DNA of 8,109 nucleotides, taken from NCBI GenBank assembly GCA_001766815.1, contig LYOS01000003.1, positions 46,945-55,053 on the forward strand, given 5' to 3'. The notes below the pieces were generated by a model. That model ran no database searches. It had not been told where the DNA came from and worked only from the letters and a program-made list of their open reading frames with translations. This stretch comes from Candidatus Syntropharchaeum caldarium. GTDB taxonomy: Archaea > Halobacteriota > Syntropharchaeia > Syntropharchaeales > Syntropharchaeaceae. The position numbers and the translations under genes are program-made. Within the stretch, counting starts at the first letter, position 1. Each line of letters begins with the position of its first letter. Positions 1-8,109 of this stretch are shown piece by piece.

Positions 1-1847
1 ATAACGGTTCCACTCTCAACCATACGCTCAAGCTCATCCGGTGCCCATGTACCGACGTTTCTTCCCTGATGGAGCATGAGATCGAGAAGCTCCTTCTCAT
101 CAGGCACCTCTCCTTCCACATCATACCCCTCTGCCTTCATCGCATCAAGGAGGTCTGTGAGGCTCGGGACGATATCGAGGTAGCTTGCACCGAGGTTATC
201 CTTTCCTCCACCGTGGTTGTAGTAGATTATCGCAACTTTCTTATCCGAGTTCTCCTTTCTGTGAAGCTCTGCCCATGACATTGCCCGTTCGGTTATCCAC
301 TCAAGCTGGTGATCGAACGGCCTGTAGTAGAGCTCACCACTCACCGGATCCTTCTCCTTGCCTGAAAAGAGTATGAACTCGGTCTCACCATCCAGTTCCG
401 GAAGAGCGATCTGCCATGCAACCTCTGATGGTGATAACCCGTTGCTCTCATTCCATTTACTCTCATTCATGTAGACGCTCATGATTCCCTTGATCGGGGT
501 GACGTTCAGCTGCTGGAGGTAACCGATCCCCTCGTCTTCATGATGGTGCCACAGCCTGAATGAGTTGATGACGATAAGTGAGTCAACCAGTGGCTTGCCA
601 TCTCTGAAGAAATGTTCCGTGGTATCCGGGTCCTTGTAGCTGAAACTTCCAAATATCACATTCGCGCCCTTATCCTCTATCTTTCTTATGAGTGGATCGA
701 GTGTCTCGTATGAACCGTACTTCCCTGAGACATAGTAATAGTGGATGCCTATCGTGGGTGCACTCTCGTTATATCTCCCTGTGCTCTCATACCATGTGAG
801 ATAATCATCTATCGAGGAGAAAATTCCGAGTCCCTGGATTCCCTCAGCCTCTGCCTTTGCATCCGGGTGATATATTCCGAACTGCGGTATCACAACAGGT
901 GATGGGATTTCATCAACCCCAAAATCGCTTACCGGGATATCGCAGAGTTTCACACCCAAAAATACGAGTAATCCCCTCATGTTATCATTCCCACCGTTTG
1001 CCCAGTATGTGGCAATATCGGCAAATTCAGGGGATGAAAGGTTTACAGAAGACATACCATAGACGTCAGTGAAGCTGGTCGTAATCACATCAGCACCCTT
1101 AGCCTTTGCCTCAAGCACCGTATCCTTGAGTGCATCCTGTACCGGGTAACCGATCATCCAGAGGAAGATGACATCCTGATCGCTCAGGTTCAGACCCTGA
1201 TAGCTCTCTGGATCATCGTGCGTGTATGTACAGAGAGATACGTTGAGATTTCGCGTGATGTAAACATCATCCAAAGTATTCTCAAGCCATGCAGCGTATG
1301 ATGAGACCTCAGATACAACAAAAGCCACCTTTGCTCTTCCTGCAGGCGGCTCAGGTGGATCCATCGCTGTGCTGTTGCCATAGAACCTGTTATCCATGTA
1401 GGTAATGAGATTCCTTATGTTCTCATCACCGCCCCAGACCCAGTACTTCGTGATGTTCACATCATCCACATTTCCGATGCTTACGTTGGAGCTTAAGTTG
1501 TATGCAAAAACATACGCACTCTGGCTTAGTGTTTGATTTATGCTTGTAACGGTTTCATTATCGAGAGAAGCCAGAAACAGAACGCTTTCATTGCTGAAAT
1601 TCGCTGCTTTTGCCTCTGTTGCATTATATATGCTGATATTTACCGTAGCATTCACCGCTGCGTTCACAAGCGAGGCTAAATTCTCATCTGTTCCAAGAAC
1701 AAAGACGATTCTATTATCCTGTTCATCCGTCTGTACCTGTGCAAATGTCACCAACGGCACAAACAACTGTACCATCAACAAGAGCAATACCAGTGGTGCG
1801 ATCGAACGCACCCTTTTTATACGATTTCTTCCAATTCCATCATGCAT
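1..1847 (-). CDS. cobN: CobN/Mg-chelatase-family large-subunit homologue, N-terminal 615 codons (the rest lies beyond the window start). A predicted Sec signal peptide or N-terminal anchor suggests it is extracytoplasmic.
   Basis: It is absent from the ORF track because it runs off the window. I translated the reverse complement codon by codon from ATG 1847..1845, and the frame stays open for 615 codons down to position 3. An SD-like GAGGTGATC (1860..1852) lies 4 nt upstream of the ATG. The N-terminus MHDGIGRNRIKRVRSIAPLVLLLLMVQLFVPLVTFAQVQ has a basic n-region, a hydrophobic core and a TFA/Q cleavage-like site. Later blocks resemble the N-terminal half of CobN/ChlH proteins by eye: PTIGIHYYYVSGKYGSYETLDPLIRKIEDKGANVIF, KVAIIYYNHGGGKDNLGASYLDIVPSLTDLLDAMKAEGYDV and HQGRNVGTWAPDELERMV. 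Confidence 0.85.
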   Translation of the reverse strand, partial: MHDGIGRNRIKRVRSIAPLVLLLLMVQLFVPLVTFAQVQTDEQDNRIVFVLGTDENLASLVNAAVNATVNISIYNATEAKAANFSNESVLFLASLDNETVTSINQTLSQSAYVFAYNLSSNVSIGNVDDVNITKYWVWGGDENIRNLITYMDNRFYGNSTAMDPPEPPAGRAKVAFVVSEVSSYAAWLENTLDDVYITRNLNVSLCTYTHDDPESYQGLNLSDQDVIFLWMIGYPVQDALKDTVLEAKAKGADVITTSFTDVYGMSSVNLSSPEFADIATYWANGGNDNMRGLLVFLGVKLCDIPVSDFGVDEIPSPVVIPQFGIYHPDAKAEAEGIQGLGIFSSIDDYLTWYESTGRYNESAPTIGIHYYYVSGKYGSYETLDPLIRKIEDKGANVIFGSFSYKDPDTTEHFFRDGKPLVDSLIVINSFRLWHHHEDEGIGYLQQLNVTPIKGIMSVYMNESKWNESNGLSPSEVAWQIALPELDGETEFILFSGKEKDPVSGELYYRPFDHQLEWITERAMSWAELHRKENSDKKVAIIYYNHGGGKDNLGASYLDIVPSLTDLLDAMKAEGYDVEGEVPDEKELLDLMLHQGRNVGTWAPDELERMVESGTV

Positions 1848-1868
1848 ATCTGATCACCTCGGGTATGT

Positions 1869-1924
1869 TCAACCGTGATGCCCCCTCTGCCTGCAAGCGA
1901 AGTTGGGGCATCACAGACGGTTGA
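1869..1924 (-). promoter_or_regulatory. Intercistronic RNA stem-loop between the ExbD-like gene and the CobN-like gene (16 bp stem, 4-nt bulge, 20-nt loop)
   Basis: The minus-strand RNA reads UCAACC-GUCU-GUGAUGCCCC-[AACUUCGCUUGCAGGCAGAG]-GGGGCAUCAC-GGUUGA. The 10-bp inner stem (1875..1884 with 1905..1914) and the 6-bp outer stem (1869..1874 with 1919..1924) are perfect Watson-Crick complements. It starts immediately after the upstream stop codon (1925..1927) and ends 8 nt before the SD of the CobN-like gene. No oligo-U tract follows it. Confidence 0.6.
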
Positions 1925-2320
1925 TCAACCTTTTGATGTACCATTTTCTGGGATGTATATCACCTCTCCAGTATCAAGTCTATAAGCAGTTCCAAGCTTT
2001 CTGCCCTGTCCGCCCGCGATTTTCTCTGTTGCGTTCAGGACCTTTATCACGTCATGATCCTTGATTATCACCTGCATATCAGGCTCACCTGGGTTCTTGA
2101 CGATCGTGACAGATGCATCAGGATCAAGAAGCTCAGGTATGTTGTATGAGAGTACGAGTGCAACTAAAAGCGCTACAGCAAAGACCATCGCAACATCAAA
2201 GAGGTTTGCAACACTTGCCAGTGGATCATCTTCATCTTCAAAAATTGACTCCAGCCTCCTTTGTCTCACTTCAATACCTCCACAACATACTCCATATCGC
2301 TTAAATCCTGTGTGTACCAT
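1925..2320 (-). CDS. ExbD/TolR-like single-pass membrane protein (DUF2149-type). The true start is probably GTG at 2269, giving 114 aa.
   Basis: This is an ORF-track entry (131 aa from ATG 2320), but that start overlaps the MotA-like gene by 55 nt. An in-frame GTG at 2269..2267 overlaps the MotA-like TGA as GTGA and follows GGAGGT. That start gives M-RQRRLESIFEDEDDPLASVANLFDVAMVFAVALLVALVL. The layout is a short charged N-terminus, one TM helix with an Asp at its cytoplasmic edge (LFDVAMVF, compare E. coli ExbD FIDVMLVLL), then a small beta-rich C-terminal domain of about 70 aa. It sits directly downstream of a MotA/ExbB-type gene, as exbD, tolR and motB do. Confidence 0.8.
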   Translation of the reverse strand: MVHTGFKRYGVCCGGIEVRQRRLESIFEDEDDPLASVANLFDVAMVFAVALLVALVLSYNIPELLDPDASVTIVKNPGEPDMQVIIKDHDVIKVLNATEKIAGGQGRKLGTAYRLDTGEVIYIPENGTSKG

Positions 2321-2883
2321 CGCTTCTTGACAATAAGAACTGCGTAAGCGATTCCTCCTGTTAAAATACCGAGAACCGTGGTTGCAAATGCGATCGCAAG
2401 GTTTGATGCCAGCGCCTCGATATTGCCAGAGGATAAGCCCATGAGGGCAGGCCCCATCGGTATCAGTGTTCCCATGAGTCCAAGCATCGGTGCAATCCTT
2501 GAGATGAGTCTTGGTATCTCAAGTTCACGGGCAATCCTTAGCTCATAGTCCTGTAAAAGCTTCTCCGCCTCGATCGAAAAGTTCGCAGCATCGATAGAGC
2601 GTGTAAGATCTGTTATGAAGCTCTCAAGGAGGAAGTTTGAGCCTGAACTCCTGAGTACGCTTGAAGCTTCTTTGAAGTTTTTAAGCTCGATATTCTCCTT
2701 TGCAAGCTTCACTCCAGACTTGAGCCTGCTGAAATCCCTGTTTCTTGATGCATACTCAGATATGAACTGCCCAACGATCACGAATGAGAATGCGACGAGT
2801 ATGAGAAGCGCGATGACTACAGGATAGAGAAGTGAATTTGATATTACAAACATCAATCCCATTATTCCAGATGATATATCCAT
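2266..2883 (-). CDS. MotA/TolQ/ExbB-family proton-channel protein (205 aa)
   Basis: This is an ORF-track entry. It has an N-terminal TM helix, a cytoplasmic helical region of about 90 aa, and then two C-terminal TM helices with the family signatures IAPMLGLMGTLIPMGPAL (compare ExbB/TolQ APLLGLLGTV) and LAIAFATTVLGILTGGIAYAV (compare ExbB ALIATAIGL). Its ATG (2883..2881) overlaps the upstream TAA by 1 nt (TAATG). Confidence 0.9.
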   Translation of the reverse strand: MDISSGIMGLMFVISNSLLYPVVIALLILVAFSFVIVGQFISEYASRNRDFSRLKSGVKLAKENIELKNFKEASSVLRSSGSNFLLESFITDLTRSIDAANFSIEAEKLLQDYELRIARELEIPRLISRIAPMLGLMGTLIPMGPALMGLSSGNIEALASNLAIAFATTVLGILTGGIAYAVLIVKKRWYTQDLSDMEYVVEVLK

Positions 2884-3599
2884 TATTGACCCCCTTTTAC
2901 CGTTGAACGATTAAATCTATGGCTGAAGAAGCCGGATAGTATAAGAAAAGCAATTATGAAGAAAGAGGTTGCGGTCTCCTTCAAATTAAACGGAATTTCA
3001 ACCGATGGGAATGATTGTGCCTGAATATACGCAGGGATGATAATCGGTGAGATCAGATAGAAAAGACCAAATATGATCATCGCTGTTCCGAGTGCAGAGG
3101 GGCTTTTAACTCCAAACCTGGTTGCAAGTGTGGATATCGAGAAGGATGAGAGTGTGACACCGATGAAGAAGATCGTACCCAGACCTAAACCGATCCTGAA
3201 GTTACTCACATCGAGTGAGTTTGAAAGAATCACACATGAGAGAAAGGTCGCGGTCACACAGACCGGGCATGGTAATGAGAGTATTAAAAATGTCTTTCTC
3301 GAATGATCAGATCCACAGGATAACCACTCCTTCTTTGTATGGATACCAAAGAGTATGAGACCGATGGCAATAATAAGGTGCATCGTAACACCAGCGGCAA
3401 GTATCCCTTCTGTTAGATCTGAAGGAATGATCCCGACGAGGAGTGCCATCACGATTGATAGAAGAAAATAGCTTGAAGCAAGATATAGCACCTCACGTCG
3501 ATTGAGGCTTGCAAATCCACACCCTATACCGGTCTTAAGCGCCAGTATCGCGATGCCGATCAGAACACCTGTCGCTATAAGACCCGTTATTTCTGTCAA
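2883..3599 (-). CDS. Polytopic membrane protein, DUF2162-like predicted transporter, with an intramembrane CPVC motif (238 aa)
   Basis: This is an ORF-track entry. The start is TTG 3599..3597, preceded by GGAGTGAT (3613..3606) with 6-nt spacing, and an in-frame TAA lies 8 codons upstream. I count about seven hydrophobic segments. A Cys/His cluster reads SCGSDHS...LPCPVCV...LSCV (residues 95-122). The DUF2162 name comes from my memory of archaeal clusters of DUF2162, MotA-like, DUF2149 and CobN genes. It needs HMM confirmation. Confidence 0.7.
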   Translation of the reverse strand: MTEITGLIATGVLIGIAILALKTGIGCGFASLNRREVLYLASSYFLLSIVMALLVGIIPSDLTEGILAAGVTMHLIIAIGLILFGIHTKKEWLSCGSDHSRKTFLILSLPCPVCVTATFLSCVILSNSLDVSNFRIGLGLGTIFFIGVTLSSFSISTLATRFGVKSPSALGTAMIIFGLFYLISPIIIPAYIQAQSFPSVEIPFNLKETATSFFIIAFLILSGFFSHRFNRSTVKGGQ

Positions 3600-3677
3600 T
3601 ATGCCATCACTCCATACCTCTTAACTTTAGTAGAATCAAAAAATCTTACCTGTTAATAAATGTTTCGATATTTTAAG
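3600..3677 (-). promoter_or_regulatory. AT-rich inter-unit spacer with candidate archaeal TATA elements and a T6 tract (possible terminator and/or internal promoter)
   Basis: The minus-strand sequence is CTTAAAATATCGAAACATTTATTAACAGGTAAGATTTTTTGATTCTACTAAAGTTAAGAGGTATGGAGTGATGGCATA. TATA-like TTAAAATA lies at 3676..3669 and TTTATTAA at 3660..3653. T6 lies at 3643..3638. This and the 77-nt hairpin spacer at 1848..1924 are the only real intergenic gaps in an otherwise overlapping gene chain. The signals are short and degenerate. Confidence 0.3.
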
Positions 3678-4418
3678 TTAAAACAAGTTTACTTTATTAC
3701 ATCTGATACTCTGGTTGTTACGATCACTATTTGTATTAACGAATCGATGAGATCGCCCCCGTTGATGCAGTTCATCCATAATCCTCCTTTTAAGCTCGAA
3801 TATGAGGATGAACAAACCTGTCAGGAATATCACAACTCCTGCAATGATATTTGCTCTTCTCTCATTCTGGGGTGGGATCTTTCTTCCAGGAAGGTTTGTG
3901 AGATAGACGAGGACCCCCATCGTAAGAATCGTAAGCACCGCAAAGGTTATCATCGTAATCGCACCGAGCATTGCCCCTTTGAGTGATGCGATCACAAAGA
4001 TCGGGATTGCAGGAATACAGGGCATCATCCCGAGGATGAGTGCAAGCGAATAGAGTGTCTCATCATGGTGGGGGTCATGATCATCATGGTGATGAGGATA
4101 ATGCCTGTGAGAGTGGTGACCATGCAGAGCCATAACTGCGTAGAGTACTCCAAACCCACACAGAAGGTATCCTGCGAGGTTTTCTACAAAGGATGCTATG
4201 TACGCTGAGAATTCAAGCCCAACCACAAGTGCAATAAGCCCGATCAGTATTGACCCTGATACATGGGCAGATCCAACCAGTAGAACCGCCTTTACAATCT
4301 TCTTCTGGTCCCAGCGCTTTGCAAGAGCGAGCATCGAGATTGGAAGGTAGTGATCCGGAACGATTGTGTGAAGGATTGCGATTGTAGCTATCGCAACTAC
4401 GAATGTCAGAGCTTCCAT
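3678..4418 (-). CDS. Nickel/cobalt permease of the NicO/RcnA-like family with a His-rich loop (246 aa). Transport direction is unknown.
   Basis: This is an ORF-track entry with six hydrophobic segments. TM1 carries LHTIVPDH, which fits the H-x4-D-H Ni/Co-transporter signature (RcnA has HGLEPGH at the same place). The loop between TM3 and TM4 is HGHHSHRHYPHHHDDHDPHHDE, with 13 His in 22 residues. TM4 has GMMPCIPAIP (RcnA has GGLIPCPAAI). Its ATG 4418 follows the cbiO TAG with no spacer, and a GAGGTTGAT SD lies inside the end of cbiO. Confidence 0.8.
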   Translation of the reverse strand: MEALTFVVAIATIAILHTIVPDHYLPISMLALAKRWDQKKIVKAVLLVGSAHVSGSILIGLIALVVGLEFSAYIASFVENLAGYLLCGFGVLYAVMALHGHHSHRHYPHHHDDHDPHHDETLYSLALILGMMPCIPAIPIFVIASLKGAMLGAITMITFAVLTILTMGVLVYLTNLPGRKIPPQNERRANIIAGVVIFLTGLFILIFELKRRIMDELHQRGRSHRFVNTNSDRNNQSIRCNKVNLF

Positions 4419-5576
4419 CTATATCAACCTCTCCCACCTTATAGTTTTCCCACTCTTTCTGTTGTACTCCTCCACCCGTCTTGAAACAAGATCACTCATC
4501 CCACCTGAGGCAAACACAAGGACATTTCCTCCCCTAATCGCCTCAGATATCGCAGAATCTATCACATCGCTCTCAAAGTCAGACTCAATCCCGAGCATTT
4601 TCGCACATGCCTTTGCAGTTGTACCCATCGCACCTGTCTTATCAGGATCAAGATCCAGAACCTTCTTGAGTTCATCAAGATTTACAGCATCAGCCCCGCC
4701 CTCTTTCATCCCGGGGATTCTTACAACCCATATCTTCCCACTCTCTCTCTTCTCTGATCCGTTCAGATTTTCAACAAGGTCGATAATTGATAGCGGAATT
4801 CTATCCACTTTTTCGTATATTCCATGTGCCTCAAACTCTTTGTGTACCTTTACAACCACCGGAAACCTGAGATCAGTCGCTCTGACAACATCTTCATTGG
4901 AAAATATCTCAGAAGGATGTCCACGGGCATACACCATCCCCCTCTGAAGCAGATAAATCTCATCAGCCCACGCTGACGCGAAATCCACATCATGGGTCGA
5001 GACCACAATAGTTTTACCTTCTGCATTCAACTCATCAAGCAACTCAATCAGTTCTGTCTGACCCCGGGGGTCAAGCCCTGAGAGAGGTTCGTCAAATACG
5101 AGGATCTCAGGATCCATCGCGAGAATTCCTGCAATCGCAACACGTTTCTTCTGCCCGGTACTCAGATGGTGAGGGGGAACTCTCTCAAACCCGGTCATTC
5201 CTACGATCTCCAGGGACTCTCCGACCCTTTTTTCTACCTCCTCCCCGGGAAGCCTGAGGTTTGACGGGCCGAAGGAGACATCATCTTTCACGGTGGGTGC
5301 AAATAGCTGATCATCAGGGTTCTGAAATACGAGTCCAACGGTTGATCTGATCCAGTCGAGGTTCTTCTTTGTGATCTCCCTCCCTTTCACGATGACCCTA
5401 CCAGTCTGTGGTAGAAAGATGCCGTTGAGGTGATAGAAGAGTGTTGATTTGCCTGATCCGTTTGGTCCAAGGATTGCAGTCTTCTTGCCATCTTCCACAC
5501 TCAGGTTCACCTCTTTAAGAGCCTGTGTCCCATCAGGATACGAGTATGAAAGATTGCAAACCTCAATCGCGTGCAC
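4419..5576 (-). CDS. cbiO: ECF/CbiO-type ABC ATPase of the Co/Ni importer, with a non-canonical C-terminal extension of about 110 aa (385 aa)
   Basis: This is an ORF-track entry. The start is GTG 5576, 1 nt after the cbiQ stop, preceded by GGAGGGAT. Motifs present are Walker A GPNGSGKST, Q-loop FQNPDDQ, signature LSTGQKKRVAIAG, Walker B ILVFDEPLSGLD and H-switch STHDVD. The canonical CbiO/EcfA body ends at about residue 270, and residues from about 275 to 385 are extra. Confidence 0.93.
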   Translation of the reverse strand: MHAIEVCNLSYSYPDGTQALKEVNLSVEDGKKTAILGPNGSGKSTLFYHLNGIFLPQTGRVIVKGREITKKNLDWIRSTVGLVFQNPDDQLFAPTVKDDVSFGPSNLRLPGEEVEKRVGESLEIVGMTGFERVPPHHLSTGQKKRVAIAGILAMDPEILVFDEPLSGLDPRGQTELIELLDELNAEGKTIVVSTHDVDFASAWADEIYLLQRGMVYARGHPSEIFSNEDVVRATDLRFPVVVKVHKEFEAHGIYEKVDRIPLSIIDLVENLNGSEKRESGKIWVVRIPGMKEGGADAVNLDELKKVLDLDPDKTGAMGTTAKACAKMLGIESDFESDVIDSAISEAIRGGNVLVFASGGMSDLVSRRVEEYNRKSGKTIRWERLI

Positions 5577-5577
5577 G

Positions 5578-6381
5578 CTATATCCCTCCCATCATCCGAT
5601 CAAGAATAACCAGAAGAAACGATGAGAGGATGATGAACGATCCCAAGAGAGTTTCTTTCAGGGAGATTGGGCGAAATCCACTGACAATTCTTGAGTCTGC
5701 CCGATACCCCCTTGAGAGCATCGCAAGATAGACGCGTTCACCCCTTGAGAATGCTCGAAGCAGAAGTGCGCCACCGAGCATCCCGAGGTTATGCATCTTG
5801 GTAACGTATGAGAGTCGGTTTGAGAACCCGGATCTTGTCTGCTGTGCCCGGTACATTCTCACGCCCTCCCTTGAGAGCAGATGGACGTACCGTATCATCA
5901 TTCCGGTAAGATCCACGAAGATGGCGGGCACTCTGAACCATCTGAGTGCTGCAAGTGCATCCTGGATTCTCGTTGTTGCGATCAGTAAGTTGAGGACGGA
6001 TACCGATGCAATTATCCTTGCAAAGATCAGGATAGCGAGGTCAAGCCCGTTTTTGTATATTTGAACCCCCATAAATTCTGCCACAACCTCCTCACCTCCG
6101 TACGTGAGGAGGACAACGATAAAGACGACAATTGCTATTGTAAGCGGTGCTATAAGCCTTTTAAGCGTTGTATTCAGTGGTATTCCGATTGCAACAGAGA
6201 CTATAAGTGTTAGAAAAAAAATTAAGAGTGGGGTCCCGGGGTGAACCATCGAGACGACTGCAAATATAAGTCCAACGGCTCCAAGAAGCTTTATCCTTGG
6301 ATCCAGTCGGTGTAGCGCGGTCTCATCTACAACCAGCCTCTCAAAGTCGAGGTCCTCTATCAGTTCCGAAAAATCCCTCAT
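5578..6381 (-). CDS. cbiQ: ECF transporter transmembrane (T) component CbiQ (267 aa)
   Basis: This is an ORF-track entry. It has the N-terminal LHRLDPRIKLL motif typical of CbiQ/EcfT, several TM helices, and C-terminal coupling-helix Arg-Gly motifs (LRAFSRGERVYLAMLSRGY). It lies between cbiN and cbiO. Confidence 0.9.
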   Translation of the reverse strand: MRDFSELIEDLDFERLVVDETALHRLDPRIKLLGAVGLIFAVVSMVHPGTPLLIFFLTLIVSVAIGIPLNTTLKRLIAPLTIAIVVFIVVLLTYGGEEVVAEFMGVQIYKNGLDLAILIFARIIASVSVLNLLIATTRIQDALAALRWFRVPAIFVDLTGMMIRYVHLLSREGVRMYRAQQTRSGFSNRLSYVTKMHNLGMLGGALLLRAFSRGERVYLAMLSRGYRADSRIVSGFRPISLKETLLGSFIILSSFLLVILDRMMGGI

Positions 6382-6485
6382 CTCTTCCTTAGCTTCCTTA
6401 TCTCATACCCTATTATCGCAAAAAGGAAGAAGCCAACCGTTGTTCCGATTCCACTCAGGGGATCGCCTGAGAGCCATTCAAGCAC
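6378..6485 (-). CDS. Candidate small single-TM protein missing from the ORF track (35 aa from GTG 6485; up to 39 aa from GTG 6497). It resembles a stand-alone CbiN C-terminal helix.
   Basis: Manual translation gives VLEWLSGDPLSGIGTTVGFFLFAIIGYEIRKLRKR*. Its TGA (6380..6378) overlaps the cbiQ ATG (6381..6379) as ATGA. Candidate GTG starts at 6497, 6494 and 6485 lie just after AGGAGG (6503..6498), inside the end of cbiN. One hydrophobic helix is followed by a basic tail, consistent with the positive-inside rule. The ORF fills the otherwise unexplained 96-nt cbiN-cbiQ gap. It was probably too short for the ORF track. Confidence 0.45.
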   Translation of the reverse strand: MLEWLSGDPLSGIGTTVGFFLFAIIGYEIRKLRKR

Positions 6486-6771
6486 GCTGACCACCACCCT
6501 CCTTTATATCGATCCAGAAGTAACCGAAGATAAACCCTGCGATGATCCCTGCAAGTGTGAACCCGACGTACTCGCCCATATCGCCAAACGCTCCCACATT
6601 TGGAACAATATCTACGGCTTCAAGCCCTCCTGTGCTTGCTGCATGCTCCTCAACAATGCCATCGGTCCCCTCCATCCCGGCACCTGACGCGTATCCCGCA
6701 TAGGCGGCAACACACATCACAGCGGTGCAGACCACAAGAAGTATCAGGGAATTTCTGACAAAATTATCCAT
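6478..6771 (-). CDS. cbiN: Small two-TM component CbiN of the Co/Ni ECF importer (97 aa)
   Basis: This is an ORF-track entry. It has an N-terminal TM helix, an extracytoplasmic loop (GTDGIVEEH...) and a C-terminal TM helix GDMGEYVGFTLAGIIAGFIFGY. That helix fits the G-D/E ... G-Y layout of CbiN (Salmonella SGEIESLLFTLQGSLGAAVIFYILGY). Its ATG overlaps the end of cbiM by 8 nt (ATGGATAA), in the canonical position between cbiM and cbiQ. Confidence 0.8.
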   Translation of the reverse strand: MDNFVRNSLILLVVCTAVMCVAAYAGYASGAGMEGTDGIVEEHAASTGGLEAVDIVPNVGAFGDMGEYVGFTLAGIIAGFIFGYFWIDIKEGGGQRA

Positions 6772-7423
6772 CTATAGCACCTCCAAGCTTTGCAATAATA
6801 TCAGGTCTTGTATCTGCGATGTACTTCACGATCGCTGCGGTGAATATGAACTCAGCGACTGCAAGCGGCAGCTGTGTCGGGACAAATCCAAGCGAGTATA
6901 GCCCCCAGTGATAGAGAACCGAACCTGGATTTATCGAGAGTGCAAGCTCCATCGCGGTTGTGAGATAGCAAAGGATATCCCCTACAAACCCTGCCATACC
7001 TGCTGCAATCCAGACCGAGAGATTGGCTCTTCTCAGAAGAACGTATGTTCCATAACCTGTGAACGTTCCCACAATCCCCATCGATACCGTGTTCGCTCCA
7101 AGGGTCGTGATCCCCCCGTGTGCAAGAAACGCATGGAAGATGAGCGCAATCGCACTCAGAACAACGGTTGCAAACGGGCCAACGACAATCGCTGACATCG
7201 GTGTCCCGATTGGATGAGAGCACGAACCTGTAACGGGAACCGGGATATGCCAGACCGCAATCACAAAGATCGCAGCGCCCATAAGCGCAAGAAGCGGCAT
7301 GTATGACGGGGTTTCCTCTGTTCTTCGTTTAATCTCGCGGATGCCAAGGGCTATAAAGACGAGGGCAACCGCGTACCACACGATACACCACTGGGTACTC
7401 AGTATTCCATCTGAGATGTGCAT
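6764..7423 (-). CDS. cbiM: Substrate-capture (S) component CbiM/NikM of the Co/Ni ECF importer (219 aa)
   Basis: This is an ORF-track entry. The N-terminus MHISDGIL matches the CbiM/NikM MH-x-x-(D/E)-G motif, in which the N-terminal amine and His2 bind the metal. It also has the conserved GSCSHPIGTP His-containing loop and a polytopic topology. It is the first gene of the cbiMNQO order. Confidence 0.93.
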   Translation of the reverse strand: MHISDGILSTQWCIVWYAVALVFIALGIREIKRRTEETPSYMPLLALMGAAIFVIAVWHIPVPVTGSCSHPIGTPMSAIVVGPFATVVLSAIALIFHAFLAHGGITTLGANTVSMGIVGTFTGYGTYVLLRRANLSVWIAAGMAGFVGDILCYLTTAMELALSINPGSVLYHWGLYSLGFVPTQLPLAVAEFIFTAAIVKYIADTRPDIIAKLGGAIDG

Positions 7424-7560: not shown

Positions 7561-8109
7561 ATGTTTGATCCAATCAATGGCCGAGAAATCCCTGAAGAAT
7601 GGATTAAAAGGTCTTCAATCCCCAGAAATGAGCTTAAAGAAGGTATTGAAAGTGGAAGGTTAATCCTTCTCCCGGATGGGAAAGTTTTAAGGCGGGGTTT
7701 TTCCACAGGAACGACAGCATCTGCTGCTTCAAAAGCCGCGGTCTTATCAATAAGCAAAAGAGTTGATAGAGTATCTGTGATGACCCCTATAGGAATCAGG
7801 GTTGAGCTGCTGGTCGAATCGGCAAATGGAGTTGGAAGAGCGGTTAAATACGCCGGAGATCACGAGTTTGACGTGACAGATGGGATTGAGATCATGGCAA
7901 CTGCGAGGCTCTCTGATGAGGGTATTGCCATAAAGGCCGGAAGGGGCATCGGCAGGTTTGAGGATGGAAGGCCTGCGATAAACCCTATACCGATGGAGTT
8001 TATCAGAAGAGCTGTACGTGAAGCGCTTGATGCAATCGGTGAGCAGGGTGTTGAAGTTGAGATTGAGGTTGTGAATGGTGAGGAGGTTGCAAAAGAGACA
8101 CTTAACCCT
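7561..8109 (+). CDS. cbiD: Cobalt-precorrin-5B (C1)-methyltransferase CbiD, N-terminal 183 codons (continues past the window end)
   Basis: It is absent from the ORF track because it runs off the window. The frame from ATG 7561 is open to 8109. CbiD hallmarks are LRRGFSTGTTASAASKAAVL (the G-x-T-T-G ... A-A-K-A-A motif), YAGDHEFDVTDGIEI, GRGIGRFEDGRPAINPIPMEFI and the terminal KETLNP (start of the NPRLGI block). Confidence 0.9.
   Translation, partial: MFDPINGREIPEEWIKRSSIPRNELKEGIESGRLILLPDGKVLRRGFSTGTTASAASKAAVLSISKRVDRVSVMTPIGIRVELLVESANGVGRAVKYAGDHEFDVTDGIEIMATARLSDEGIAIKAGRGIGRFEDGRPAINPIPMEFIRRAVREALDAIGEQGVEVEIEVVNGEEVAKETLNP

Follow-up and report, generated by a model that had tools for sequence, protein, structure and literature searches.

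Introduction

The closest described relatives of the system reported here are the hmuYRSTUV loci of Porphyromonas, Prevotella and Bacteroides, which encode a hemophore, a TonB-dependent receptor, the CobN-like protein HmuS, and the proteins HmuT, HmuU and HmuV (PMC11681262, PMC10434189). HmuT is given as a hypothetical membrane protein, HmuU as a member of the MotA/TolQ/ExbB family and HmuV as a DUF2149 protein (PMC11681262, PMC10434189). The present analysis concerns a module of four genes at positions 1-3599 of an 8109-nt stretch of archaeal DNA (contig LYOS01000003.1, positions 46,945 to 55,053), which was analysed over its whole length and is referred to below as the window. Its source is Ca. 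Syntrophoarchaeum caldarius, a butane-oxidising archaeon, with whose proteins the MotA-like and DUF2149 proteins of the window agree at 100% identity. Judged by sequence, the module is the archaeal counterpart of the HmuS-HmuU-HmuV core with a DUF2162 protein added, and its homology and architecture can be stated with near certainty.

HmuS was shown in 2025 to be a periplasmic, membrane-anchored haem de-chelatase whose activity resides in the membrane fraction; the recombinant protein without its helix stalls after one to two turnovers, for which missing factors were invoked, and the use of HmuS homologues in archaea was called unclear (PMC12583661). What HmuT, HmuU and HmuV do in haem-iron use by Bacteroides and Porphyromonas was still unknown in papers of 2025-2026, one of which, from 2026, calls the three proteins uncharacterised (PMC13227078). 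For BtuS, a periplasmic, inner-membrane-anchored location like that of HmuS has been reported or predicted, which agrees with the topology found here for the archaeal protein. According to a 2003 proposal, as it is cited by Rocha et al., BtuS-type proteins salvage metalloporphyrins. No description of the archaeal arrangement was found in the literature.

Results

Organisation of the module

All four genes lie on the minus strand, at the positions given by an earlier note on this DNA that was made from the letters alone, and each is supported by a match to the Pfam family expected for it. From the low to the high coordinate, the features are as follows.

3..1847, minus strand: CobN-like protein, N-terminal 615 aa, running off the window (PF02514, E 5e-75)
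1848..1924, minus strand: 77-nt spacer with a GC-rich hairpin (GUGAUGCCCC...GGGGGCAUCAC), found by folding, then the ribosome-binding site GAGGUGAUC of the CobN-like gene
1925..2269, minus strand: DUF2149 protein, 114 aa, GTG start inside the stop codon of the MotA-like gene (PF09919, E 2.9e-32)
2266..2883, minus strand: MotA/TolQ/ExbB-family protein, 205 aa (PF01618, E 1.4e-11, 44.7 bits against a cut-off of 22.9)
2883..3599, minus strand: DUF2162 polytopic membrane protein, 238 aa, TTG start (PF09930, E 1.2e-57)

The junctions were also as previously read: the ATG of the MotA-like gene overlaps the DUF2162 stop by one base (TAATG, with one base shared by TAA and ATG), and the GTG of the DUF2149 gene lies within the TGA stop before it (GTGA). 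The same 114-aa form of the DUF2149 protein is used in the public record (SCAL_001014); an in-frame ATG at 2320 would give a 131-aa protein. Both the length of the spacer before the CobN-like gene and its strong fold were borne out, the hairpin reaching -34.4 kcal/mol (z -2.6) with none of 200 shuffles as stable. In the related loci of ex4572_44 and S. butanivorans, the stem of the hairpin is kept while the loop varies.

Conservation of the gene set

Synteny was followed by a scan with a DUF2149 alignment, taking one genome per species; it confirmed at least 510 loci, of which 80 were fetched. The fetched archaeal loci came from Methanosarcinales, Methanotrichaceae, Methanomicrobiales, groups 1, 2 and 3 of the anaerobic methanotrophic archaea (ANME-1/2/3), Syntrophoarchaeum, Archaeoglobaceae and Altiarchaeota, and the bacterial ones from Bacteroidales, Planctomycetota, Myxococcota, Verrucomicrobia and Deltaproteobacteria. 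Genes were identified by searching six-frame open reading frames (ORFs) with hidden Markov models (HMMs) built for this work.

In every fetched locus with enough sequence, the MotA-like gene was found directly upstream of the DUF2149 gene. Where 6 kb or more of sequence flank this pair on each side, a same-strand CobN-like gene adjoins it in 18 of 25 archaeal and in all 13 bacterial cases. The third membrane gene is more variable: DUF2162 precedes the MotA-like gene in 46 of the 54 archaeal pairs, HmuT takes this place in Bacteroidota and in one Verrucomicrobia locus, and the loci of Planctomycetota and Myxococcota are without such a gene. The four-gene synteny proposed in the earlier note therefore stands for many archaeal genomes, but since DUF2162 is missing in the last two phyla, it is not universal and the conserved core consists of three genes. 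MotA-like, DUF2149 and exported CobN-like genes usually occur together, and AAA+ subunits are no recurrent neighbours of theirs.

Archaea have no outer membrane. No TonB-dependent receptor or HmuY family was found in the archaeal loci, and since the pair is nonetheless retained there together with the CobN-like gene, the conserved partner of the pair is the CobN-like protein rather than a receptor.

Two observations on single contigs were made alongside. The contigs of loci L031, L034 and L038, labelled Nitrosotalea, Desulfuromonadales and Proteobacteria, hold archaeal-type sets with DUF2149 proteins 65-70% identical to that of the window, and these contigs are probably mis-binned archaeal ones. 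A deltaproteobacterial locus (L073, 6384-16917) combines an archaeal-type DUF2162 and a CobN-like protein of the DNDD type described below with two TonB-dependent receptors, and so forms a bridge between the archaeal version of the system and the diderm one.

Location of the CobN-like protein

The protein is annotated publicly as cobaltochelatase subunit CobN. Its full-length relatives measure 1520-1534 aa, and for the 1520-aa orthologue from ex4572_44 (locus L001) the best match in the Protein Data Bank (PDB) was HmuS (9d26, 532 bits), followed by mycobacterial CobN (483) and ChlH (473). This orthologue and that of the Methanosarcina locus L052 both fell below all NCBIfam cut-offs for CobN and BchH, the best result being 1354 bits against 1619 for NF004645. 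Together with the active-site residues described below, these scores mark a distinct exported subfamily that is cobalt-type at one diagnostic site.

The extracytoplasmic location put forward in the earlier note was supported by several features. The protein begins with a basic n-region and a hydrophobic core, followed by a TFA/Q site. At the N-terminus, nearly all linked full-length CobN-like proteins, archaeal and bacterial, have a signal or an anchor, and at the C-terminus a helix with an Arg/Lys tail; by the positive-inside rule, the helix and its basic tail place the bulk of the protein outside. Moreover, the 615 residues in the window contain 18 N-X-S/T sequons compared with 4.7 expected from composition, the other window proteins having 0-4, and this enrichment fits an archaeal surface glycoprotein.

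Genes for TonB, TolA, CobS/T or ChlI/D are absent from the window, as the earlier note had stated, and none was found within 10 kb in the closest relatives. No recurrent AAA+ partner was observed either within 10 kb in L001 or in a Pfam census of 31 archaeal loci, where no Mg-chelatase-type AAA+, von Willebrand factor type A or CobT family was among the 25 commonest Pfam families of 136 neighbouring ORFs.

Active-site class of the CobN-like protein

The HFGTHG motif (His-538 position), which lies beyond the window end, is kept in full-length orthologues. At the position aligned with His-1209 of HmuS, the L001 orthologue has an Asp within DNDD; the corresponding residues are DSDD in solved CobN (9uk9 and 7c6o), SLDH in HmuS and DVSH in ChlH.

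The HmuS family as described by Nath et al. in 2025 has a Met-rich insertion and the haem ligands Met-79 and His-254. No such insertion was evident in the archaeal proteins, which have at most 6-10 Met per 120-aa stretch, compared with 13-15 in two Segatella/Prevotella HmuS proteins and 8 in a third Bacteroidales HmuS. Met-79 and His-254 align with Ile and Ser in the archaeal enzyme; a Met one residue before the aligned site and an HHH 4-6 residues after it would allow a shifted site. With no insertion, Ile/Ser at the aligned ligands and DNDD rather than SLDH, the enzyme does not count as an HmuS in the strict sense.

Across the loci, DNDD marks the main archaeal clade, SLDH the Bacteroidota and Verrucomicrobia, and SNK[F/Y] the Planctomycetota and Myxococcota. 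Some archaeal paralogues among loci L022, L039, L044 (1447 aa) and L028 (2045 aa) have lost HFGTHG (FSIFS) and carry EHPM or DHPM at the second site, and one ANME-1 protein reads GIDH there, with a His as in HmuS and ChlH. This variety, together with the lost HFGTHG, hints at several classes of substrate or metal, or at inactive proteins.

The MotA-like protein and its DUF2149 partner

The MotA-like protein gave an E value of 5.5e-4 with PDB MotA 8gqy and was 35% identical over its full length to Bacteroides HmuU (E 1e-43), while the DUF2149 protein was 50% identical to Bacteroides HmuV (locus L007, E 1e-33). The parallel with the hmu locus that was drawn in the earlier note thus proved correct, HmuU belonging to the MotA/ExbB family and HmuV to DUF2149 (PMC11681262). 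With NCBIfam, the MotA-like protein lay outside the curated ExbB, TolQ, MotA and PomA groups (15-22 bits compared with cut-offs of 135-394). From its sequence it can be regarded as a bona fide family member on a separate, HmuU-type branch. P-x-LGLMGTLI-x-MGPA and the TT of the last helix (F-x-TT-x-G) are nearly invariant among 78 homologues, and the conserved polar GT and TT positions of the family's last two helices are present. The motifs noticed previously, LMGTL and FATTVLG in this protein and LFDVAMVF in DUF2149, fall in the most conserved stretches (78 and 89 homologues, respectively), with the Asp at least 98% conserved. By analogy with the family, the MotA-like protein is a candidate ion-conducting stator subunit.

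The DUF2149 protein consists of a basic N-terminus, one transmembrane helix with an Asp (D25), and an outer, beta-rich domain of about 65 aa; D25 and the motifs NLFD, KNPG and Y-x-P are invariant across homologues. Its assignment to ExbD/TolR in the earlier note found no support from Pfam, from profile searches against the PDB, from HHalign or from a fold search. No ExbD Pfam match appeared at E up to 10 for HmuV-type DUF2149 proteins, or for the protein of the window with the limit set at E 0.01. The DUF2149 profile matched nothing in the PDB, and Foldseek found no PDB match for an AlphaFold2 model that was built on 41 sequences and was of low confidence (predicted local distance difference test score, pLDDT, 59.5). 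HHalign against ExbD/TolR gave a global probability of 0.4%; the best local match set D25 on Asp25 of ExbD over 21 columns only (E 0.0086, probability 4.7%), the ExbD reference being an E. coli sequence that differs from 6tyi in one residue. No ExbD or TolR gene was present in any fetched locus.

A single N-terminal helix and a conserved Asp near the cytoplasmic face are nevertheless shared by DUF2149 and ExbD, and with its basic N-terminus the protein is built like ExbD, TolR or MotB. As only the helix aligns, DUF2149 was not filed under ExbD, and family membership is not claimed; by analogy, the protein is a candidate plug or axle subunit that would work like an Asp-bearing stator partner.

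A shared C-terminal module and other cargoes

The last ~60 residues of the linked CobN-like proteins align across archaea, Bacteroidota, Planctomycetota and Myxococcota. They comprise the motif G-x-[V/E/K]-[M/L]-x-[K/E]-[E/K] (GxVMxKE), a linker of 15-25 residues, a helix and a basic tail. Models for PGF-CTERM, Loki-CTERM, Heimdall-CTERM and LPXTG did not reach their cut-offs on this module.

An HMM of the module also matched NosD/beta-helix proteins in L004-6, L056, L062, L066, L067 and L068, and these loci hold DUF2162-MotA-DUF2149 sets without a CobN-like gene. In L004-L006 (1-3830) and L068 (6577-10321), the NosD-like gene lies directly upstream of the set. Since two unrelated cargo families have a common tail and common motor genes, the tail, which the earlier note does not mention, is a candidate dock to the motor complex, and this sharing is the strongest evidence at hand for such docking.

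Two further loci have MotA-DUF2149 pairs without DUF2162 that follow a secreted protein with a C-terminal anchor: one of 2514 aa in a second S. butanivorans locus (L055, 1876-10339) and one of 871 aa in Methanolobus (L047, 6495-10321). The 2514-aa protein ends in VYGYPMGEE and a helix, GYPMGEE being a variant of the motif.

As separate observations, the DUF2162 protein of the CobN-less set in L004 has a 185-aa N-terminal extension, and the Altiarchaeota locus L068 (5143-15455) holds its beta-helix cargo and motor set amid genes for FeoA, FeoB and a DtxR-type repressor, recognised from sequence alone.

The DUF2162 protein

Eight helices were predicted for the DUF2162 protein, with a family-wide PCPxC motif (P110-C111-P112-V113-C114) at a helix break. 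Residues G11, K22, G24, Y44, G85, P110, C111, P112, C114 and G223 are near-invariant in 64 diverse homologues. The AlphaFold2 model was confident (pLDDT 91.8, predicted template modelling score 0.78); among solved structures Foldseek found no relative (best E 0.14, template modelling score at most 0.37) and no match of DsbD/CcdA type.

Identity with HmuT was considered and ruled out (BLASTP E 0.64, no Pfam match for HmuT, HHalign probability 0.6%). The family is labelled by Pfam as a predicted transporter, and roles as a metal conduit or an electron conduit can be guessed at. The protein is best described as an archaeal accessory, a third membrane protein that accompanies the motor pair in a lineage-specific way.

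Cobalt context of the module

The remainder of the window is occupied by the following features, of which only cbiD, at the right end, is on the plus strand.

3678..4418, minus strand: His-rich six-helix membrane protein, 246 aa, between cbiO and DUF2162 (PF13386 DsbD_2, E 2.2e-8)
4419..7423, minus strand: cbiM-cbiN-cbiQ-cbiO importer for cobalt/nickel of the energy-coupling factor (ECF) type, co-directional with and directly upstream of the module
5576-4419, minus strand: cbiO (Pfam/NCBIfam CbiO match)
6381-5578, minus strand: cbiQ (Pfam/NCBIfam CbiQ match)
6771-6478, minus strand: protein of 97 aa in the CbiN position, overlapping cbiM by 8 nt
7423-6764, minus strand: cbiM (Pfam/NCBIfam CbiM match)
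7561..8109, plus strand: cbiD, cobalt-precorrin-5B methyltransferase, divergent and cut by the window end (PF01888, E 2.6e-32; NF000855, E 3.7e-59)

The CbiMNQO genes and cbiD that the earlier note had placed next to the module are thus present, as judged by Pfam and NCBIfam; no model of either collection matched the 97-aa protein. The Co/Ni-uptake context also recurs, with ECF importers or cbi genes adjoining the module in Syntrophoarchaeum relatives and ANME-1. The genes downstream of the CobN-like gene were read not from S. caldarius but from two loci 85-88% identical to it: in ex4572_44 (L001) the module lies between cbiMNQO and cbiT/L/F/G/H/A/C-type genes, and in S. butanivorans (L011) it directly precedes the same set of biosynthesis genes, three families of which are also found in L037. 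Cbi/Nik-type ECF importer genes adjoin the module in three ANME-1 loci (L014, L028, L031). Taken over all contexts, metal acquisition is the common theme, and cobalt or nickel is best supported only for the Syntrophoarchaeum lineage and ANME-1.

DsbD_2 was the only Pfam match above cut-off for the 246-aa protein, whose ATG abuts the cbiO stop. Its first helix contains an H-x4-D-H (HTIVPDH, residues 17-23); PCIP occurs as a further motif, and one loop, HGHHSHRHYPHHHDDHDPHHDE, is rich in His. These features resemble those of UreH/NiCoT-type Ni/Co permeases, and by sequence the protein is probably a secondary Ni/Co permease. Its gene is not present in the L001 or L011 loci.

Several smaller observations concern the rest of the window. 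CbiO has a C-terminal extension of ~110 aa that matches DUF7839 (residues 278-362), a fusion shared by L001-L003, and L001 has an extra 35-aa ORF after the gene in the CbiN position. The spacer upstream of DUF2162 (3600-3677) contains a T-run, GATTTTTTGA, and a TATA-like element, TTTATTAA, ~50 nt ahead of the TTG start, so that a promoter of its own, apart from that of cbiMNQO, may serve the four-gene module. No Rfam family was matched in the window, and no meaningful repeats were found there.

Discussion

Comparison with described systems

The archaeal module shares with the Hmu system (HmuS 9d26 and HmuT/U/V; BtuS1/BtuS2 in B. fragilis) a class I chelatase homologue that is exported and has an anchor at either end, the MotA/ExbB-family and DUF2149 genes, the same C-terminal module and the lack of an AAA+ partner. 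It differs in having neither the HmuY hemophore nor the TonB-dependent receptor, in the replacement of HmuT by the unrelated DUF2162, and in gene order, which is T-like, U, V, S in the archaeal set and S, T, U, V in Hmu. The enzyme itself is without the Met-rich insertion and the equivalents of Met-79 and of His-254, and it has DNDD in place of SLDH; the surroundings are those of cobalt and B12 in the archaeal case and of iron and haem in Hmu. The archaeal module is therefore a distinct variant of the Hmu/BtuS type.

The comparison with CobN-CobS-CobT and ChlH-ChlI-ChlD gives a mixed result. The large subunit is homologous over its whole body, keeps HFGTHG and has DxDD as in solved CobN. In contrast to those cytoplasmic, AAA+-powered and metal-inserting enzymes, the archaeal protein is extracytoplasmic, has no recurrent AAA+ neighbours and scores below the CobN/BchH cut-offs.

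As in ExbB-ExbD-TonB, TolQ-TolR-TolA and MotA-MotB, a MotA/ExbB subunit is paired, by translational coupling, with a small single-pass protein whose membrane Asp is invariant, and as in the TonB and TolA systems, the presumed client is held by one helix and works outside the membrane. However, the outer domain of DUF2149 is unrelated to that of ExbD or MotB by every test run, and the archaeal client is anchored by its C-terminus, whereas TonB and TolA are anchored by the N-terminus. Unlike the 5:2 motors ExbBD, TolQR and MotAB, the archaeal set belongs to hosts without an outer membrane.

Further parallels were found in systems of other function. In nitrous oxide reductase assembly (NosD-NosF-NosY with NosL), a cytoplasmically energised complex drives a periplasmic, metal-handling beta-helix protein, and NosD-like proteins are the alternative neighbours of the motor set described here, a link given by gene neighbourhood only. 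NosDFY uses an ATP-binding cassette (ABC) ATPase, and the MotA-type protein would take the place of this ATPase in the archaeal set. GldLM/PorLM of type IX secretion and SiiAB of Salmonella may be likened to it as MotA-like motors for extracytoplasmic proteins with a C-terminal element or for a giant adhesin, but they act in secretion or adhesin control and not in metal chemistry.

Proposed mechanism

The explanation preferred as a whole, to which slightly less than an even chance is given, is that of a motor-driven anchored chelatase that recovers cobalt or nickel. Its parts differ in strength. A functional partnership of motor and anchored protein is probable. That the motor powers catalysis or turnover is proposed tentatively, by analogy with known motors, and Co/Ni de-chelation by the CobN-like enzyme more tentatively still.

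The CobN-like protein is exported, and its C-terminal module keeps it anchored to the outside of the cytoplasmic membrane. MotA-like and DUF2149 proteins most likely form an ion-driven, stator-type complex in the membrane, which would engage the anchored enzyme through this module, so that ion flow would drive the enzyme's conformational cycle. The driven step may be substrate loading or product release, the role played by the AAA+ subunits in cytoplasmic class I chelatases. Running in the direction of metal removal, the enzyme would free cobalt, and perhaps nickel, from corrinoids or other metallo-tetrapyrroles outside the cell, for uptake through the neighbouring importers; the position between CbiMNQO and cbi genes and the DNDD site make such stripping for re-import the likeliest task. 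DUF2162, with its PCPxC motif, may pass metal or reducing equivalents across the membrane. The stall of helix-less HmuS after one or two turnovers fits this motor model.

Several points weigh against the proposed mechanism. Homology of DUF2149 to ExbD, TolR or MotB is unsupported beyond the helix, so a 5:2 motor is assumed by analogy. In six of the 25 archaeal pairs with 6-kb flanks, no CobN-like gene adjoins on the same strand. Only ~5-7 of ~31 archaeal CobN-like loci show the context of cbi genes or an ECF importer, and most Methanosarcina and Methanomicrobiales loci have unrelated housekeeping neighbours. The HmuS-type haem ligands are absent and no alternative tetrapyrrole site was identified in the archaeal enzyme, while the DNDD signature is a single-position argument. 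In vitro, HmuS carries out single turnovers without ATP and without its partners, and NADH supports activity in membrane fractions from lysed cells (PMC12583661); the motor is consequently not strictly needed for the chemistry. Finally, a proteome study of M. barkeri ties two 'BtuS' proteins to iron/sulfur supply and not to cobalt (PMC10846266).

Alternative explanations

The alternative that survives best, although it is considered unlikely, is that MotA-like, DUF2149 and DUF2162 proteins (HmuTUV in bacteria) form an uptake route for a tetrapyrrole or metal, the CobN-like protein serving only in outer binding or processing. An uptake role is the working assumption of the Porphyromonas literature; DUF2162 is polytopic, as is HmuT, its PCPxC suits soft-metal binding, and Pfam calls it a predicted transporter. 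This polytopic third protein is, however, the variable part of the set, being DUF2162, the unrelated HmuT or absent, and dedicated importers (CbiMNQO, the Ni/Co permease, Feo) already adjoin the module. The same motor set also accompanies NosD-like proteins. To our knowledge, all characterised proteins of the MotA/TolQ/ExbB family work as ion-driven motors and none carries solutes, which was likewise counted against transport.

Slightly less credence is given to a motor for the biogenesis of surface proteins that bear the C-terminal module, acting in their insertion, retention, positioning or release in the manner of GldLM/PorLM or of SiiAB with SiiE. One module is found on unrelated cargo families and matches no known archaeosortase-type signal, and the very large C-anchored secreted proteins of L055 (2514 aa) and L047 (871 aa) are encoded directly upstream of their pairs, all of which suits such a role. 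Against it, the cargoes have ordinary signal peptides and a plain C-terminal helix, for which Sec/YidC should suffice, and the chelatase and NosD cargoes are both metal-handling proteins with known relatives that are ATPase-driven, which points to work on a folded protein; neither argument is conclusive.

Equally improbable is a haem (iron) de-chelatase like HmuS/BtuS, serving iron acquisition or haem turnover, with the cobalt context incidental. HmuS is the best solved relative, the 'BtuS' proteins of M. barkeri increase with a change of Fe/S source (PMC10846266), and the Altiarchaeota motor set lies inside a Feo/DtxR iron cluster. Yet the cargo in Altiarchaeota is a beta-helix protein and not CobN-like, the Met-rich insertion and the Met-79/His-254 equivalents are missing, and the His-1209 position is Asp as in cobaltochelatases. 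In addition, the module lies within or directly upstream of a cbi cluster in three related genomes and beside Cbi/Nik importers in ANME-1.

An ordinary cytoplasmic biosynthetic chelatase (cobalt for B12 or nickel for F430) with unrelated membrane proteins as neighbours, as the public CobN annotation, the cbi gene neighbours and the CobN-type DNDD site might suggest, is very improbable given the signal peptide, the C-terminal anchor with basic tail in orthologues and the enriched sequons that place the bulk outside, the lack of a recurrent AAA+ partner, the scores of L001 and L052 below every NCBIfam CobN/BchH equivalog cut-off, and the link with the MotA-DUF2149 pair that is conserved in both archaea and bacteria.

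Significance

The proposed motor-driven chelatase, whose mechanism is well motivated, would have consequences in both domains. Class I chelatases are thought to need AAA+ ATPases, and an extracytoplasmic one driven by the membrane potential would be a new way to energise chelatase chemistry. Since the pair is kept with the enzyme in organisms without an outer membrane, HmuU and HmuV can be argued to serve HmuS rather than the TonB-dependent receptor, and a function would be assigned to these two proteins of gut and oral Bacteroidota.

A wider family is indicated by the C-terminal module that the cargoes have in common and by the NosD-like proteins as alternative clients. It is conceivable, though less likely than not, that MotA-like and DUF2149 proteins constitute a cross-domain class of ion-driven motors whose clients are extracytoplasmic metal-cofactor enzymes docked by the module, the motor replacing the cytoplasmic ATPases of the clients' relatives (AAA+ ChlI/D or CobS/T for class I chelatases, the ABC pair NosFY for NosD), and that in methanogens, ANME and alkane-oxidising archaea it recovers cobalt or nickel from environmental corrinoids, F430 or metalloporphyrins. 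These organisms have a high demand for nickel (F430) and cobalt (corrinoid) and live in sulfidic habitats where free metal is scarce. If the proposal is true, membrane energy would be delivered to the archaeal cell surface in a TonB-like manner, and surface recycling of cobalt and nickel from tetrapyrroles would represent a new route of trace-metal acquisition.

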